This document shows positions 15,001 through 21,000 of a DNA stretch of 64,000 nucleotides, in pieces (position 1 is the stretch's first letter; each line of letters starts with the position of its first letter). Location: positions 1,376,001-1,440,000 of the forward strand of contig OY760175.1 of the NCBI GenBank assembly GCA_963663165.1. The letters are read 5' to 3'. This stretch comes from an uncultured Desulfospira sp. (GTDB lineage Bacteria; Desulfobacterota; Desulfobacteria; Desulfobacterales; Desulfobacteraceae). The position numbers are program-made.

Positions 15001-18000
15001 TGGCGCAGGCCTTCCATGAGGGCGGGCATCACCTCGGGCAGCCGGTTTGAAAACCCCGTGGTCAGCTGAAGTACGGCAAATCCGGATTCATGATAAAACC
15101 ATGTGATGTCTGACGGATCGTAACTGTTTTCCGGCAGCAGCCTGAAAAGACCGGGATCCGGGCAGGCCATACCGGACATCCCATATTTTTTCATGATGCC
15201 TTCAGGCTCAAGGTGGGGTTCAATCACCAGAACCTTTTTGGAAGATTCATCAGCGATATGAAAGGAGACCGTATAAAGAAAATGGGATACCCCAAGGCCC
15301 GGGCCTGTTGCTGAAACCGCATAAAAAACAGGGGTATTCTGTTTCCTTAAACGGTCCTTTTCCCCGGTGGACATCTGCTTGGCGTAATACCGGCTCAAGT
15401 AAAGCCCGATACTTTTATTGTCTTTGATCAGTATCTCGAAATTCGGACGGGTCAGGCAGAATAAGGTGCAGTCCAGGGAAACGGTTACCGTAGAGTTTCT
15501 CGGCTCACCAGAGAGAAGCGACAGCTCGCCGAAAAAATCCCCCCGTTTTAATTGGGCCAGATATATTTTCTGGCCATTGATTTCCCGGGCAACCGAAATC
15601 ATGCCGGACCGGATAATATACATGGAATCCCCGGGATCACCCTGGCGGCAGATGATGTCGCCTTTTTGAAAGGCCTGCTTTGTAAACAGGCTGGCAACGC
15701 CAGCCACCTGCTCACCGGGGACAGAAGAAAACAAGGGGACATTCTGCAAAAATTCAATCAGATCCTGAAGGGTCTTTTTCATATCAAAATCTCACAGGGT
15801 AACCGAATGCAACTTGCCTGCAATGTAAACTTACCAAATACAATTTCAGTGCTTCGCACTGAAATATTCTATTCTCACGCAAAGGCGAAAAGGCGCAAAG
15901 ATTAGTTCCCTATAGCAGTGTTTTTCTTTGCGCCTTTGCGCCTTTGCGTGAATTTTTATGGCATCCGGCAGGACTGTAAATTTTCAAGAAATCCTAAATA
16001 CGCTTATCCCGCAAATCAATCCCCCGTGCCTCCAGCTTATCACGGATTTCATCAGCCAGGGCCCAGTTCTTTTCTTTTCTGGCCTCTTCCCGCTGCTCTA
16101 TCAATTTAAGGGTTTCACGGTCAAAAGACGGATGATCAAAGGAAAAAATGCCCAGTACCGAATCTATTTGTTTAACCATATCCAGAATCTGCTTGGCGCC
16201 CGTTGCATCAATAAACTGATTGTCCACAAGGATATTAATTTCCCGGATCTTTTTTAAAATATTGGACAAGGCCCCCGAAATATTAAGATCATCATCCATG
16301 GCAGCGTTAAATTCATCGCCCATACTCTGAACCAGATGATCCAGCCCGGAAAAGTTCTGCCCCTGGCCGACCTGGTTCAAAGTTTCAACAAAGTTGTCAA
16401 ACCGTTTGAGCACCTTGCCGGCTTGTTCCAGGCGTTCGTCAGACCAGACAACGGGTTTGCGGTAGTTGGTGGACAGCAGCATAAAACGGATTTCCCTTGC
16501 GGTTAAGCCGCTTTCCATCAAGGCCGGGATATTTAAATGCCGGCTTGTTTCATCCACCTCTTTGCCGTCCAGCATTACAGGGCCGCAGTGCATCCAGTAA
16601 TTGGCCAGCATCTTTCCGGTGGCCGCCATGCCGATGGCGATTTCATTTTCATGGTGGGGGAAAATCAAATGCCGGGCACTGGTGTGGATATCAAAATTGG
16701 GGGATAAATATTTCATGGCCATGGCCGGGCACTGGATATGCCAGGATGGCCTGATGTTCCCCCATTGGGTCTCCCAGTATATCCCTTTTTTCAGTTCATT
16801 TAGTTTGGCCCGTTTGAGCAGTGTGAAGTCTTTGGGGTTGTCCTTTTCATAGTCGTCCAGATCCACTGTGGTGCCGACCTTAATCTTATCAAGTTTGACC
16901 CCGGACAGCTCTCCGTAGCTTGGCAGCCTTGAAATGTCAAAATAGACAGATTTGAGCTTTTCATATCCAAACCCCTTACTGATGATTTTTTCCGTTAAAT
17001 CAATCATCTCCTTTACATGATCGCCGGCAAGGGGGAAATGGTTTGCCGGACGGATAGAAAGCAAATCAAGATCCTGCCGGAACATCTTGACATATTTCTG
17101 GGTAAAGGTTTCAAGATCAACGCCTTCTTCTTGTGCCCCCTCAATGGTTTTGTCGTCAATGTCCGTAATATTCATCACATGATTAACGTCATACCCTTTG
17201 TAACTTAGATACCGGCACAGCAGGTCTGAAAACACAAACCGCCGGGCTTCGCCCAGGTGCATCCTGGCATGGACCGTGGGGCCGCAGGAGTATATCCCGA
17301 CATTGCCTTTTTCATTGGGGATAAAGTCCGTTTTTTCACGGCCCAGGGTATTATAAAACCGGATTGAGCTTTTCTTTTCCGGTGCGGAAAACAGCGTGGT
17401 ACTCAGATACCGTTCCCCGCTGTCCGGCAGGATGGTGACAATGGTGCCAGACTCAAGCTCCCTGGAAAGATTGACGGCTGCCGCCATGGCCGCCCCGGAA
17501 CTCATGCCCACAAAAAGTCCCTCTTTTCTGGCCAGCAGCCTTGCCATTTCAAAGGCTTCATCATCTTCAACGGAAACGATCCTGTCCAGCCGTTTTTTAT
17601 CATAAATCCCCGGGGGATAGGATTCTTTCATGTTCTTGAGCCCCTGGATTTTATGCCCTACCCCCGGCTCCACCCCGATGACCTGGATAGCCGGGGCCTT
17701 TTCCTTAATCTTCCTGGAAATCCCCATGAGGGTTCCGCAGGTTCCCATGGTGGCGACAATCATGGACACCTGGCCCTGGGTCTGATTTAAGATTTCCTCA
17801 GCCGTGCCATGGTAATGGGCCATCCAATTGGCCTGGTTGTTGTATTGGTCTACATTAAAATAAAGATCCGGATGCTCCCGGGTCAGCCGGTATGCCTCTT
17901 CAATGGCTCCGTCTGAACCCAGATGGCTGGGGGTCAGGATAATCTTCGCCCCCCTGGCCTCAAGGATTCTTCGCCGTTCCAGGCTGACCGCCCCGGACAT

Positions 18001-21000
18001 GGCCAGCAACAGCTGGTACCCCTTGACCGAACAGACCATGGCAAGGCCGATGCCGGTATTCCCGCTGGTGGCCTCGATAACGGTCTTATCTTTTGTCAGC
18101 TCCCCTGACTTCTCCGCCTCCTGGATCATCCAGAGAGCGGCCCGGTCCTTAATGGAACCGCCCGGATTCATATACTCCAGCTTGGCCAGAATCCGGACAT
18201 CCGGATTATCCTGAACGTTCACCTGCACCAGCGGGGTATTGCCGATGGTATCTATTAATGAATTGTACATTATATATTGTCTTTCCCTGCCTTGTATTCC
18301 CATTCAAGTTTACCCATAGCCTTTAAATGATTTTCTACACCATAACGTTCCTTAAAATCAATGGGAGGTTTGGCGTACGAAGCCCGGAAACCGGAAAGGA
18401 TAAGCTGATTTAAAGCCCTTGACTTGAGATTACACCCAGAGACCGCTTCTAAAGTCTATGGTCTAAAGTCTAATGTCTATTTCCGATTTTTTTGAAAAAG
18501 CTGCCCATCGGCATACAGACCTTTTCCAATATTATCGAAAACAACTATTGCTACGTGGACAAAACCCCCTTGATCGCCAAACTGGTCACCCAGGGGGAAT
18601 ACTATTTCCTGTCCCGGCCCCGGCGTTTCGGCAAAAGCCTGCTCATCGACACCATTGCCCAGGCCTTTCATGGCAGAGAAGAACTTTTCCAGGGCCTTTA
18701 CAACTGGAACTGGGATAAGATCACCGGACAGGTAGAAAAAATACCATCGTATTCTTGAACTTATCAGGGGGTGTTCTCTTGTGGAAAACACCCCCTTCAA
18801 AGACAAACGGGCGGTTTTCTAAGGCGACCATTTATATCCAAAAAGCCTAATGAACATTTCCATATCCGTTTCATCAATACCACCGTCGTTATCGAAATCT
18901 GCCTGCGGGAAATAGGCATCATCTCCGGAACTGCTGCCGAATGCACCGGCCATCAGCACGAGATCGGCTCCGTCAACATCATTGTCTATATCAAAGTCAC
19001 CAAAAGGCGGGGCTATATCCGGATGGCTTTTTCCATCAAGAGGATCAGAACCATTTGTAATTTCCGTGTAGTCGTCAAATCCGTCAGAATCCGTATCGAT
19101 ATCAAAGGGATCGGTTCCATATAAAATTTCGGATTGGTTTGAAAGACCATCCCTATCGGCATCGCCGTCTTCAGAGAATGTCGTAAAATGCCATACGGCC
19201 CCCAAAGTCTGAAGTTCGCTGTCATCTTTAGACAGGATACGCCAGTAATAGGTTGTGCCGAAATCCAGTTTTTCCAGAATAGAAAATTCTGAAAGACTGG
19301 TGGTTCCGAAGACTTCAAGGTTGTCACTATCCGTTGCCATCAGTATCTCGTATACCAAGGTGTCGTTAGAATCCCTGTCCCCACCTTCCCAGGAAAGCGT
19401 TGGCAGCACGGAAACCTGTAAGGCACCTGAAGCCGGATCCGGAAAATATGGCACCAGTGGTGCATGATTGGACTGCCAGGGCATGCCGAAAATTGAGACA
19501 AACCGCTCCAAGTCCTTCTGGTCAATGATATCATCCTCCACCAAATCCGTTTCCGGATCAAAGGCGGCATCCCCGTTGACACTGCCAAAGGACTGGACCA
19601 GCCTAACAAGATCCTTCCCATCGGCATCCTGATCCGAGTCGAAATCTCCGAACAACGGAAAATCCGGGAAGGAAAACTGGCTTAACGGGCTGGTTCCGTT
19701 CCTAATTTCAGAACAATCATCATACCCGTCCTGATCCGTATCCGCTTCAAACGGATCGGTCCCCAATTCTATCTCTTCAGCATTGGTCACCCCGTCTCCA
19801 TCTGCATCTTCCATGGCCGCAAACGTGTGAAAATGCCAGACAGGCCCGCTGGCCTGCAAGCCGTCATTATCCGTTGATACAATGGACCAGAAATAAGTGG
19901 TATTGAAATCCAGATTCTCTAATATGGATGACTCAATACTTTCTATGGTTTCAACCGTAAGCATGTCACTGCCGTCAGTGCCTAACAGGATATCATATGA
20001 AACCGTATCCTCCGGATCAGAGTCCCCCCCCTGCCAGGAAATCGGCACAGATACGGATATGTTTTTGGCCCCGTCTTCCGGGGATGGAATTGAAGGGGGA
20101 TAAGGGGGATGATTTACATCGGGAATCCATGTTATGCTGCCCTGGGCATAAGATATACAGGTGGTTTCTTCATCAGATATCTGAGCGTAAACATAATAGG
20201 TCCCTTCCTCAAGCCCGGATACATCCCATTCATAACTGTCCTGATCCCCATCCGCATCTTCACTGATATCGCCAACGATTAATTCCCCGTCCTGCCCTTG
20301 TGAATCCGTGTCATAATACAAGGATATAAGGGCGTCGGAATCCGGATCTATGTCTTTCCATTCTATTGCCATTACGCTGGCCGGGCTTTCATTGGTCAAT
20401 GTCGTATCCTCATCAGGTGTTGCCAACTCAATAAACGGGGGATTGTTATATGTGTCCTTTAAAACAAAAAAGGCTCCCACTGAACTCCAGTCTCCGTATT
20501 CACCGTGGTTGTCCATAAGCCGGGCACGCCAGTAATACCATTTGCCGTTCTCAAGCTCTAAAGGAATGGGAAATTCAAACCCGTCAGCCAATGTTTGGTT
20601 GATTAGCGGGGCCTCCATTTCCGGATCCGTGTATACCGCCACAGCCATCCGGACCGATTCCCCGTCCGTATCCTGCCCCGGGTGAACGGATAAGGTGGGA
20701 TTGCTGTGGCCGATCCAGGAAAGATGCCCGGGGTTTTGAATCACCGCCTGATCAGGCGGCTCATTAGCGGAATTGATAAAAAATCGGCCATATACCCATT
20801 TACTGTAGCTGCTGCCATCCCCTGCCCGGACCCGCCAGTAATATAAGGTATCATCATTTAAATTGCTGACAGTCCATAGAACAGAATCATCCGAAACCTC
20901 CAAATCCCCTTCACCGGACGTGATAAGATCTGAGGAGTCAAAGGTCTGGGACACATCGACCTGGAATTCATATGAAACCTCATCCCCGTCAGGATCATCC

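Follow-up and report, generated by a model that had tools for sequence, protein, structure and literature searches.

Results

A gene that joins a predicted CysM-type cysteine synthase to a full-length body resembling cysteinyl-tRNA synthetase (CysRS; residues 303–758) lies on the minus strand of the window, the whole 64,000-nt stretch of Desulfospira DNA that was analysed (Table 1). The survey's finding had described an uninterrupted CysK/CysM-type and CysRS fusion, and this is what we see: a single open frame of 758 codons and a stop, with Pfam matches to PALP (residues 7–283, 235.1 bits), tRNA-synt_1e (318–617, 278.5 bits), DALR_2 (653–709) and CysS_C (713–756) that agree with the earlier figures. 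The protein also exceeds the NCBIfam cut-offs for both cysS (371.9 bits vs 340) and cysKM (369.4 bits vs 344.15). Starting at the upstream in-frame ATG (18303) would lengthen the protein by 11 residues, whereas alignments with homologues begin at residues 1–5 of the 758-residue protein. A purine-rich stretch, AGGGAAAG, is a possible ribosome-binding site, and a downstream hairpin is a possible terminator. The gene is apparently monocistronic, with an upstream spacer of ~200 nt; no conserved neighbour, no Rfam element or other regulatory RNA and no adjoining CysO, MoeZ or Mec gene was found around it. A literature search returned no paper describing a fusion of a CysM-type synthase with a pseudo-CysRS.

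Table 1. Features of the fused gene and its flanks (window positions)
Feature	Position	Strand	Basis
Whole CDS, predicted CysM-type cysteine synthase and pseudo-CysRS	15994..18270	minus	single open frame; Pfam/NCBIfam matches; homologues end to end
Purine-rich stretch AGGGAAAG, candidate ribosome-binding site	18281..18288	minus	10 nt upstream of ATG; read from sequence
PLP (PALP) cysteine synthase domain, aa 7–295	17386..18252	minus	PALP 235 bits; cysKM 369.4 bits
Short linker, aa 296–302	17365..17385	minus	between end of PALP match and start of cysS match
CysRS-like Rossmann N-terminal half, aa 303–432 (C329, decayed HIGH, R344)	16975..17364	minus	
Degenerate HIGH, HLGE, H338–E341 (E. coli H37-I-G-H40)	17248..17259	minus	alignment
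CP (connective polypeptide) domain, aa 433–507	16750..16974	minus	identity, dN/dS, invariant columns
CysRS-like Rossmann C-terminal half, aa 508–617 (W510, C514, H539, E543, S531, decayed KMSKS)	16420..16749	minus	
Degenerate KMSKS loop, E571-V-D-E574-T (E. coli K266-M-S-K269-S)	16546..16560	minus	alignment
Helical (stem-contact/DALR_2) region, aa 618–712	16135..16419	minus	Pfam DALR_2 653–709
C-terminal anticodon-binding domain, aa 713–758	15997..16134	minus	Pfam CysS_C; residue mapping
10-bp palindromic hairpin, candidate terminator	15843..15865	minus	~130 nt downstream of stop; consensus match only

The catalytic set of the synthase domain is intact (PLP lysine K41, the Asn loop S69-G70-N71-T72, Q142, G176-T177-x-G179-T180 and S257), and all 63 fused proteins compared share its PLP and substrate residues. 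The substrate loop, GLKNMKES, is of the CysM type, the best structural matches being CysM (O-acetylserine sulfhydrylase B) of E. coli and Salmonella (PDB 2BHS, 2JC3), which has the same catalytic residues and is likewise a PLP enzyme of fold type II. K212, a lysine in every fused protein, aligns with E. coli CysM R210, an arginine that we take to bind anionic substrates, so that a cationic residue is kept at this position; its equivalence to R220 of Mycobacterium tuberculosis CysM is uncertain by one position. The fused protein differs from CysM in having this lysine for arginine, in carrying a 455-residue pseudo-synthetase and in falling below the equivalog cut-offs for both cysM (351 vs 394) and cysK (325 vs 351). 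Within the genus, the dN/dS of the synthase domain is 0.047. We predict that it is a working CysM-type cysteine synthase.

The CysRS-like body has the architecture of canonical class I CysRS (E. coli CysS, PDB 1LI5/1U0B; best solved match 8QHP; TIGR00435), with a Rossmann fold and CP insertion, a helical domain and a C-terminal anticodon domain. Alignment to 8qhp and 1li5 bears out the reported loss of both signature motifs, with HIGH reading HLGE and KMSKS reading (K)EVDET. Motifs were counted, in E. coli CysRS numbering, in the 63 fused proteins and in 108 free-standing CysRS. HxG[H/N] is retained in 11, G226 in four and the catalytic K269 in none of the fused proteins, and no fused protein has all three; each is present in 108/108 free-standing enzymes. 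In the Desulfospira protein the ATP-site residues are E341, S531 (at G226), E571 and E574, and three positions that are invariant in the free-standing enzymes are replaced, two of them by Glu. These replacements indicate that the adenylation site has been destroyed. The second His of HIGH is indeed lost, as the survey had noted, but this loss alone is not diagnostic of the fusion because the free-standing CysRS closest to it are of the HxGN type; what separates the two groups cleanly is K269, G226 and HxG[HN]. Ten of the 63 keep HxGN together with KMSRS, and some fused lineages may retain residual chemistry.

The cysteine pocket has fared differently. The zinc ligands C28, C209, H234 and E238 correspond to C329, C514, H539 and E543, in line with the earlier reading that the zinc- and cysteine-binding residues are kept. 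Across the family they are found in 54, 58, 62 and 41 of 63 proteins, respectively; the Desulfospira protein and 38/63 members have all four, along with W205 and T68, and at least one is missing in 25/63. Because C28 or C209 is lost in nine of the 63, cysteine sensing cannot be a function common to the whole family.

The anticodon domain is kept more uniformly. R727, R731, W736, D740, R743 and D755 correspond to E. coli R423, R427, W432, D436, R439 and D451; R423, D436, R439, D451 and an aromatic residue at W432 are each present in 63/63 proteins, and R427 in 59, with Lys in the other four. These anticodon readers are thus kept at 94–100%, the most decayed members included. According to an excerpt of PMC13449415, R427, W432, D436 and R439 belong to the anticodon-binding domain of E. 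coli CysRS and were targeted by mutagenesis as anticodon-facing, and R427 reads G34. The Desulfospira protein stops three residues past D755 without the usual GPxGxxWRR tail, and the absence of these last ~10 residues, common to its closest relatives, might weaken tRNA binding.

In 20 genomes, the divergence of each part of the fused body was set against that of the corresponding part of their canonical CysRS, giving ratios of 1.51 (Rossmann N-half), 1.96 (C-half), 1.11 (CP), 1.02 (helical) and 1.01 (anticodon domain). Within the pseudo-CysRS, conservation is highest in the CP domain (mean identity 0.61), which has 0 nonsynonymous vs 18 synonymous changes within the genus. It carries the family-specific invariants K438, T468, R487, L490 and T501; another, R344, lies in the N-terminal Rossmann half. 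The CysRS-like part as a whole has a within-genus dN/dS of 0.068, which speaks of purifying selection. Judged from sequence, the zinc-thiolate pocket, the CP domain and the readers of the GCA anticodon are evidently under strong purifying selection.

The same genome encodes a canonical CysRS (contig 1609950–1611368, 563 bits, 479 residues from Met, 34% identical to the fused protein by BLAST) with intact HIGH, GGG and KMSKS, a free CysK (contig 502020–502916, 421 bits) and one tRNA-Cys(GCA) gene, and the fusion is accordingly a second copy, as had been claimed. A cysE gene adjoins the free cysK and not the fusion. Full-length, single-frame fusions occur in 7/9 other genomes of the order and in 120/301 sampled genomes of the phylum, consistent with the earlier count of 22/60. 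The survey's description of the fusion as ancient and widespread is borne out: the Desulfobacterota fusions lie to the same side of a branch whose SH-like support is 99. Their clade is placed beside HxGN-type CysRS and not beside the resident bacterial CysRS. A CysK-CysRS fusion that arose independently, its motifs intact, is present in a Nanoarchaeota MAG (P0123). Of the 120 carriers, 117 have two or three CysRS-like matches, that is, another CysRS-like gene beside the fusion, which indicates that a normal CysRS performs charging; in one carrier (G158, 95% complete) no second CysRS was seen.

In 57/120 carriers there is one cysKM match and no detectable CysE, the fusion being the sole CysK/M-type gene; 56 have at least two cysKM matches and CysE, and the rest are mixed (five and two). 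Four closed carrier genomes (G112, G039, G106, G030) yielded neither CysE (best 44 bits) nor SepRS, and SepRS was not found in any of the five genomes searched. Genome content thus suggests that the fused family works without serine acetyltransferase. Because CysE is absent and the fusion is the sole CysK/M-type gene in half of the carriers, the donor is most likely O-phospho-L-serine or another non-acetyl compound, used with sulfide. The Desulfospira genome has CysE, and the O-phosphoserine assignment therefore rests on the other genomes. M. tuberculosis CysM, which depends on O-phosphoserine (PDB 3DKI, 3DWG), likewise occurs without CysE, but the fusion has no CysO, MoeZ or Mec genes alongside.

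Discussion

The fused protein does not appear to be an ordinary tRNA ligase; every sequence-level test agrees on this point, as the survey had anticipated from the motifs, and the ATP-site losses and the other CysRS-like gene of most carriers point the same way. The reading that we tentatively favour is a CysE-independent, CysM-type synthase joined to a catalytically dead CysRS paralogue, its C-terminal 455 residues, that senses tRNA-Cys or cysteine. Binding of cysteine and tRNA, and its coupling to the synthase domain, are what we infer from the retained residues; for sensing and allostery we argue by analogy. HisZ, which partners HisG in the short-form ATP phosphoribosyltransferase, is a synthetase paralogue that does not aminoacylate, is physically joined to the enzyme that produces the cognate amino acid and has kept its amino-acid pocket. 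The fused body shares this pairing, but it is class I, covalently attached and still equipped with an anticodon domain, whereas HisZ is class II, a separate subunit and without one. The HisRS-like domain of GCN2 is catalytically dead, fused to an effector domain and reports uncharged tRNA; it is eukaryotic, responds to many tRNAs and has a kinase as effector, whereas the fused protein would couple a single tRNA species to a metabolic enzyme as effector. MshC (cysteine:GlcN-Ins ligase) is also a CysRS-derived paralogue outside translation, but it lacks an anticodon domain and uses ATP in its ligase reaction; the fused protein has lost its ATP motifs and scores below the TIGR03447 cut-off (193.5 vs 485.1).

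It is conceivable, if rather unlikely, that the pseudo-CysRS senses nothing and is a structural relic, retained because it stabilises the synthase, promotes its oligomerisation or docks it onto a partner, for example the translation machinery or the canonical CysRS. The invariants R344, R487, K438 and T468, together with the CP domain, could form a protein interface instead of a ligand site, neither conserved neighbours nor a regulatory RNA were found, and the domain persists in the 9/63 members whose zinc ligands are gone. A pure scaffold would, however, have no need of the surface anticodon readers that even the most decayed members keep, and the evolutionary rate of the anticodon domain does not exceed that of its counterpart in working CysRS. 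Those readers, with the cysteine pocket and the very short linker, could also serve tRNA-linked chemistry, in which the body docks tRNA-Cys or Cys-tRNA-Cys and the PLP domain or zinc pocket acts on the tRNA-bound residue (SepCysS-like conversion, persulfide formation or deacylation), or new cysteine is handed directly to the charging system. The Nanoarchaeota fusion shows that a coupling of the synthase and ligase activities has been selected elsewhere. We consider tRNA-linked chemistry improbable: SepRS was not found in the five genomes searched, the Asn loop for a free alpha-carboxylate, kept in 63/63, argues for a free amino-acid substrate, and decay is concentrated around the acceptor-end and ATP sites. 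There is an equally slim chance that tRNA is not involved and that the zinc-thiolate pocket holds new cysteine, sulfide or persulfide, buffering a toxic product or passing sulfur on. The pocket is complete in the Desulfospira protein and 38/63 members, and the carriers are, by their names, sulfide-rich anaerobes; this proposal leaves the better conservation of the anticodon readers than of the zinc ligands unexplained, and 25/63 members lack at least one ligand.

That the protein is a working cysteine synthase and cysteine–tRNA ligase, as database labels have it, seems very doubtful. The cysS score clears its cut-off, relatives are named 'cysteine--tRNA ligase' in their sources, and both the 10/63 relatives with HxGN and KMSRS and the carrier with no second CysRS seen would suit such an enzyme. 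Against this, K269 and G226 are kept in 0/63 and 4/63 fused proteins vs 108/108 free-standing ones, four ATP-site positions of the Desulfospira protein are occupied by E, S, E and E, its genome encodes a canonical CysRS, another CysRS-like gene occurs in 117/120 carriers, and the Rossmann halves evolve 1.5–2 times faster than in working CysRS. We regard as highly improbable a translational autoregulator of the ThrRS type, in which the pseudo-CysRS would bind its own mRNA at a leader element resembling tRNA-Cys. The kept anticodon readers and the monocistronic-looking gene with its upstream spacer would allow for one, but 7-nt-loop hairpins holding GCA occur in 4/63 leaders vs 3.6 expected from shuffles, with none in the window, and no Rfam element was found.

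Returning to the favoured sensor reading, we propose that the pseudo-synthetase body would act as a built-in sensor of tRNA-Cys, that in the Desulfospira protein it probably binds free cysteine as well, and that it would tune the fused synthase to cysteine demand. Sensing at the synthase itself fits a branch that leaves the serine pathway directly, with no CysE step available for feedback. In Desulfospira, the fusion would provide a second cysteine route beside cysE-cysK. Through this fusion, cysteine production is probably linked to tRNA-Cys by a protein that does not appear to charge the tRNA.

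Domain structure and surroundings of the fused gene

The fused gene is a single uninterrupted reading frame that encodes 758 aa and closes with a stop codon. An alternative in-frame ATG 33 nt upstream would lengthen the product to 769 aa; the 758-aa start is likely the correct one because the alignments of relatives begin at residue 1–5. Among NCBIfam models, the protein exceeds the cut-offs of cysS TIGR00435 (371.9 bits, cut-off 340; aa 304–756 match model positions 2–457 of 466) and of cysKM TIGR01136 (369.4 bits, cut-off 344.15), and scores under those of both the cysM and the cysK equivalog models. 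The Pfam and NCBIfam bit scores in the survey's finding, which had described a cysteine synthase fused to a CysRS paralogue without HIGH and KMSKS, were reproduced.

The gene appears monocistronic. On its 5′ side come a spacer of ~200 nt and a 109-aa ORF that matches no Pfam family, and a hairpin followed by the gene of a cNMP-binding patatin-like lipase lies on its 3′ side. Conserved operon partners were sought and rejected: across 41 loci, each taken with 5-kb flanks, none of the neighbour families is shared by more than 5; tmk is found upstream of the fusion in five Desulfobacterales loci of this set. A riboswitch or T-box was likewise rejected, the Rfam search (E<=1, window 12000–24000) returning one chance miRNA match. 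Just upstream of the fused gene is a row of genes for very large repeat surface proteins with a radical-SAM gene among them. Elsewhere in the window, two FeeM-like genes lie beside a transporter gene (window 9136–13571), a possible cluster for making and exporting lipo-amino acids, and a transposase is split into adjacent ORFs, frameshifted or decayed.

Features of the fused protein, of the window and of the rest of the genome
Feature	Position	Strand	Size, score or remark
Fused gene	window 18270..15994	-	758 aa
PALP (Pfam)	fused protein aa 7-283		235.1 bits
tRNA-synt_1e (Pfam)	fused protein aa 318-617		278.5 bits
DALR_2 (Pfam)	fused protein aa 653-709		
CysS_C (Pfam)	fused protein aa 713-756		
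Protein with N-terminal ThiF-family adenylyltransferase domain	window 6990-9005	-	671 aa; weak nitroreductase-like match; 7 kb from fused gene
MMPL/RND-type transporter gene	window 9136-11406	-	
FeeM-like N-acyl amino acid synthase gene	window 11992-12747	+	
FeeM-like N-acyl amino acid synthase gene	window 12717-13571	-	
Ig/fibronectin/TSP3-repeat surface protein	window 18819-23492	-	1557 aa
DDE_Tnp_ISAZ013 (Pfam) transposase	window 23596-24886	-	ORFs of 193 and 228 aa
Ig/fibronectin/TSP3-repeat surface protein	window 26924-29146	-	740 aa
Ig/fibronectin/TSP3-repeat surface protein	window 29214-32201	-	995 aa
Second hexapeptide acetyltransferase	window 60342-60758 (contig 1436342-1436758)	-	partial CysE-like match, 107 bits, under cut-off
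cysE-like gene	contig 501451-501942		161.7 bits; directly upstream of free cysK
Free cysK	contig 502020-502916		421 bits
Canonical CysRS	contig 1609950-1611368		479 aa; 563 bits

The synthetase half: a lost ATP site in a conserved body

We compared 63 fused genes, each from a different genome of the phylum sample, with 108 free-standing CysRS. The fused set comprises the 30 best loci and 33 of 40 fetched loci, after removal of five loci from genomes already represented and of the frameshifted genes of genomes G016 and G286; the remaining 57 carrier genomes lie outside the alignment. The free-standing set comprises 21 canonical copies of carrier genomes and 87 stand-alone representatives (440–520 aa), with six rows that fall within the fused clade omitted. 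HIGH in the form H-x-G-[H/N], G226 (the invariant Gly after H224; E. coli numbering) and K269 (the second Lys of KMSKS) all occur together in each of the 108 free-standing enzymes, whereas in the fused set they are found in 11/63, 4/63 and 0/63 (Arg replaces K269 in 29), and no fused protein has all three. In the window's protein, HIGH reads HLGE, G226 is S531 and KMSKS has become E571-V-D-E574-T, which places acidic residues at the sites that bind the ATP phosphates. Judged by these motifs, the CysRS half is catalytically decayed, and in a specific manner. The loss of the second His of HIGH, emphasized in the survey's finding, holds for this protein but is not diagnostic: Asn is normal there in HxGN-type CysRS, the closest free-standing relatives (55 of 87 stand-alone representatives), which makes G226 and K269 the firmer evidence of decay. 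Because HxGN and KMSRS persist together in 10/63 fused relatives, motif decay in the family forms a gradient, and as regards KMSKS the window's protein stands at its decayed end.

The rest of the body is better preserved. Of the zinc/cysteine ligands, C28 is retained in 54/63 fused proteins, C209 in 58/63, H234 in 62/63 and E238 in 41/63, with all four in 38/63; the window's protein has every one (C329, C514, H539, E543) together with W205 (W510) and T68. Five C-terminal domain positions are conserved in at least 90% of free-standing CysRS, and four of them, R423, D436, R439 and D451, are invariant across the fused set; the fifth, R427, is kept in 59/63 and is Lys in the other four. The W432 position is aromatic in 63/63. 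In E. coli CysRS, according to one study, R427, W432, D436 and R439 face the anticodon in structure 1U0B and were therefore chosen for mutagenesis, and R427 is bonded to G34 (PMC13449415). Their counterparts in the window's protein are R731, W736, D740 and R743. The nine fused proteins without C28 or C209 retain all five anticodon-domain residues as well as the invariants of the CP domain. Set against canonical CysRS (TIGR00435, EC 6.1.1.16), the fused protein matches in profile, zinc pocket and anticodon residues but not in HIGH, G226 or KMSKS. Identity as MshC was rejected (193.5 bits against a TIGR03447 cut-off of 485.1, with the ATP motifs lost).

In 20 genomes holding both copies, the ratio of fused-copy to canonical-copy divergence is 1.51 for the N-terminal and 1.96 for the C-terminal half of the Rossmann fold, 1.11 for the CP domain, 1.02 for the helical region and 1.01 for the anticodon domain. 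When the gene is set beside that of another genome of the genus, with which it shares 92% nucleotide identity, the PALP domain has a dN/dS of 0.047 and the CysRS-like part one of 0.068, and the CP domain shows 0 nonsynonymous and 18 synonymous changes. The CysRS-like domain is therefore no decaying relic. The fused family has also acquired invariants of its own: R344 is present in 63/63 fused proteins and 0/108 free-standing CysRS, and R487, K438, T468, L490 and T501 are further examples absent from the free-standing enzymes.

The C-termini vary, and here a caveat applies to the window's protein: it and its closest Desulfobacterales relatives end 3 residues past D451, without the usual GPxGxxWRR tail. 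In six other loci (L033, L034, L038, L039 and L074, from genomes G258, G169, G199, G229 and G105, and L104:4089-6428), a Cys-rich tail (C-x2-C-x7-C-P-E) takes the place of GPxGxxWRR and may be an extra metal site. The possibility that a C-terminal Ile tail, as in CysE, blocks the CysK site was considered and rejected, since Ile is the last residue in only 3/63 fusions and the tails are unconserved.

The synthase half and the distribution of CysE

The synthase half looks active and CysM-like from its conserved residues. The PLP Lys K41, the Asn loop S69–T72, Q142, the phosphate loop G176–T180 and S257 (at PLP N1) are present in 63/63 fused proteins. The substrate loop reads GLKNMKES, and its invariant Lys aligns with R210 of E. 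coli CysM; the CysM arginine binds anionic substrates. The best structure matches of this segment are CysM 2jc3 and 2bhs, and the M. tuberculosis O-phosphoserine sulfhydrylase 3dki was also matched. A literature search on this role of the arginine found nothing.

A full-length fusion occurs in 120 of 301 sampled phylum genomes, four of them partial or frameshifted. At E<=1e-40 against TIGR00435, 106 of these carriers have two CysRS-like matches, 11 have three and three have one (G008, 79% complete; G087, 62%; G158, 95%). Three matches are seen in carriers of family f32 (G024, G065, G101, G134, G165, G195 and G225), indicating one more CysRS paralogue in addition to the fusion and the canonical copy. 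The genome studied here has, besides the canonical CysRS, a single gene each for tRNA-Cys(GCA) and tRNA-Sec.

With cysKM TIGR01136 at E<=1e-50 and CysE TIGR01172 at E<=1e-35, the fusion is the only recognizable cysteine synthase and no CysE (serine acetyltransferase) was found in 57/120 carriers; 56 carry both CysE and an additional cysKM gene, five an additional cysKM gene with no CysE found, and two CysE with no additional cysKM gene. These counts take related genomes as independent and describe the sample, without a statistical test. CysE was thus not found in 62/120 carriers at this threshold, about half, and four closed fusion-only genomes (G112, G039, G106, G030) gave a best CysE score of 44 bits. 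We read this pattern as a co-occurrence of CysE with free CysK, from which the fusion is independent. The SepRS/SepCysS route was rejected for genome G000 and these four, as no SepRS was found (TIGR00470, best 32 bits, cut-off 380.65). The 63 aligned fusions derive from 35 genomes without CysE and 28 with it, and their active-site residues are identical throughout, suggesting that the fused family is probably independent of O-acetylserine. O-phosphoserine would be the obvious alternative donor.

Origin and spread of the fusion

In a FastTree phylogeny of 183 CysRS-type sequences (unrooted, with SH-like support rather than bootstrap), a branch with support 99 sets apart the 63 fusions together with five fused representatives and six short rows, of which three are fragments of fusions. 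The other three, P0137, P0139 and P0141, appear to be genuine stand-alone proteins (460–484 aa, beginning at the CysRS N-terminus); P0137 and P0139 carry the RR signature of the clade, and P0141 has RF there. Their placement implies that unfused pseudo-CysRS exist. When metagenomes were scanned with P0137, the best locus was again a fusion and the rest were ordinary CysRS, which is uninformative on stand-alone forms. Natural split forms were rejected: the gene of G286 had looked split, but its break (L062; near residue 340, inside the Rossmann fold) and that in G016 (L051; near residue 575–588) are frameshifts in pseudogenes or assembly errors and not designed splits.

Full-length fusions are found, among others, in records named Desulforapulum autotrophicum, Desulfospira joergensenii, Desulfatibacillum, Desulfobulbus, Desulfocapsa, Caldimicrobium and Desulfovibrio ferrophilus, and MAGs labelled Polyangiaceae and Pseudobdellovibrionaceae also hold them; Atlas clusters of 64, 65 and 143 members have the same two Pfam families. 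P0123, in which CysK is joined to CysRS in a Nanoarchaeota MAG, is placed outside the fused clade of Desulfobacterota and therefore looks like an independent fusion. With HIGN, G226 and KMSKS intact, it looks catalytically competent and truly bifunctional.

Proposed function

We tentatively favor, at slightly less than even confidence, a mechanism in which an active CysM-type synthase domain would make cysteine independently of CysE and would be tuned by the dead CysRS body to which it is fused. This body would bind tRNA-Cys and, in the window's protein, probably cysteine. The proposal rests partly on analogy with HisZ, which tunes HisG, and with the HisRS-like domain of GCN2. Like HisZ, the fused protein is a synthetase paralogue without catalytic motifs that is joined to the biosynthetic enzyme of its cognate amino acid. 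A more specific form of this mechanism, rather unlikely as it stands, is that uncharged tRNA-Cys on the dead body activates a CysE-independent O-phosphoserine cysteine synthase and that cysteine in the zinc pocket inhibits it.

Other roles must be weighed against the same observations. The CysRS-like body could be a pure scaffold, which we find improbable in view of its conserved anticodon domain. We strongly doubt that the fused protein carries out tRNA-linked chemistry, for which the retained anticodon residues speak and against which the decay around the ATP site speaks, and we have equal doubts about a buffering of cysteine or sulfur, for which the zinc pocket is complete in some family members and broken in others. 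Residual ligase activity seems more doubtful still, with HxGN and KMSRS surviving together in a minority of relatives and the full set of three ATP-site features in none. Least probable is that the CysRS-like body autoregulates its own mRNA: a ThrRS-like operator was rejected, since tRNA-Cys anticodon-arm mimics occur at chance level in the leaders (4/63 against 3.6 expected), with none in this window.

Implications

A full-text literature search found no description of this CysK/M-CysRS fusion, and it is not mentioned in the accessible text of a 2010 survey of class I synthetase-like proteins (PMC2922099). In databases the fused protein goes by the name 'cysteine--tRNA ligase' or, where it comes from Desulfovibrio, by 'cysteine synthase'; judged by its sequence, the ligase label is wrong for the window's protein, and the synthase label covers only half of it. 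Because so many carriers have the fusion alone and no recognizable CysE, metabolic models of many sulfate reducers will contain a gap or a misassignment in the cysteine pathway. A pseudo-synthetase that sensed tRNA-Cys or cysteine would be the first class I synthetase paralogue to regulate the synthesis of its own amino acid, and would offer a compact system for testing direct tRNA-to-metabolism signalling in bacteria. Should the synthase be gated by tRNA, bacteria would have in this fusion a purely metabolic equivalent of GCN2 and HisZ, and a large proportion of sulfate reducers would have in it their main or only route to cysteine.
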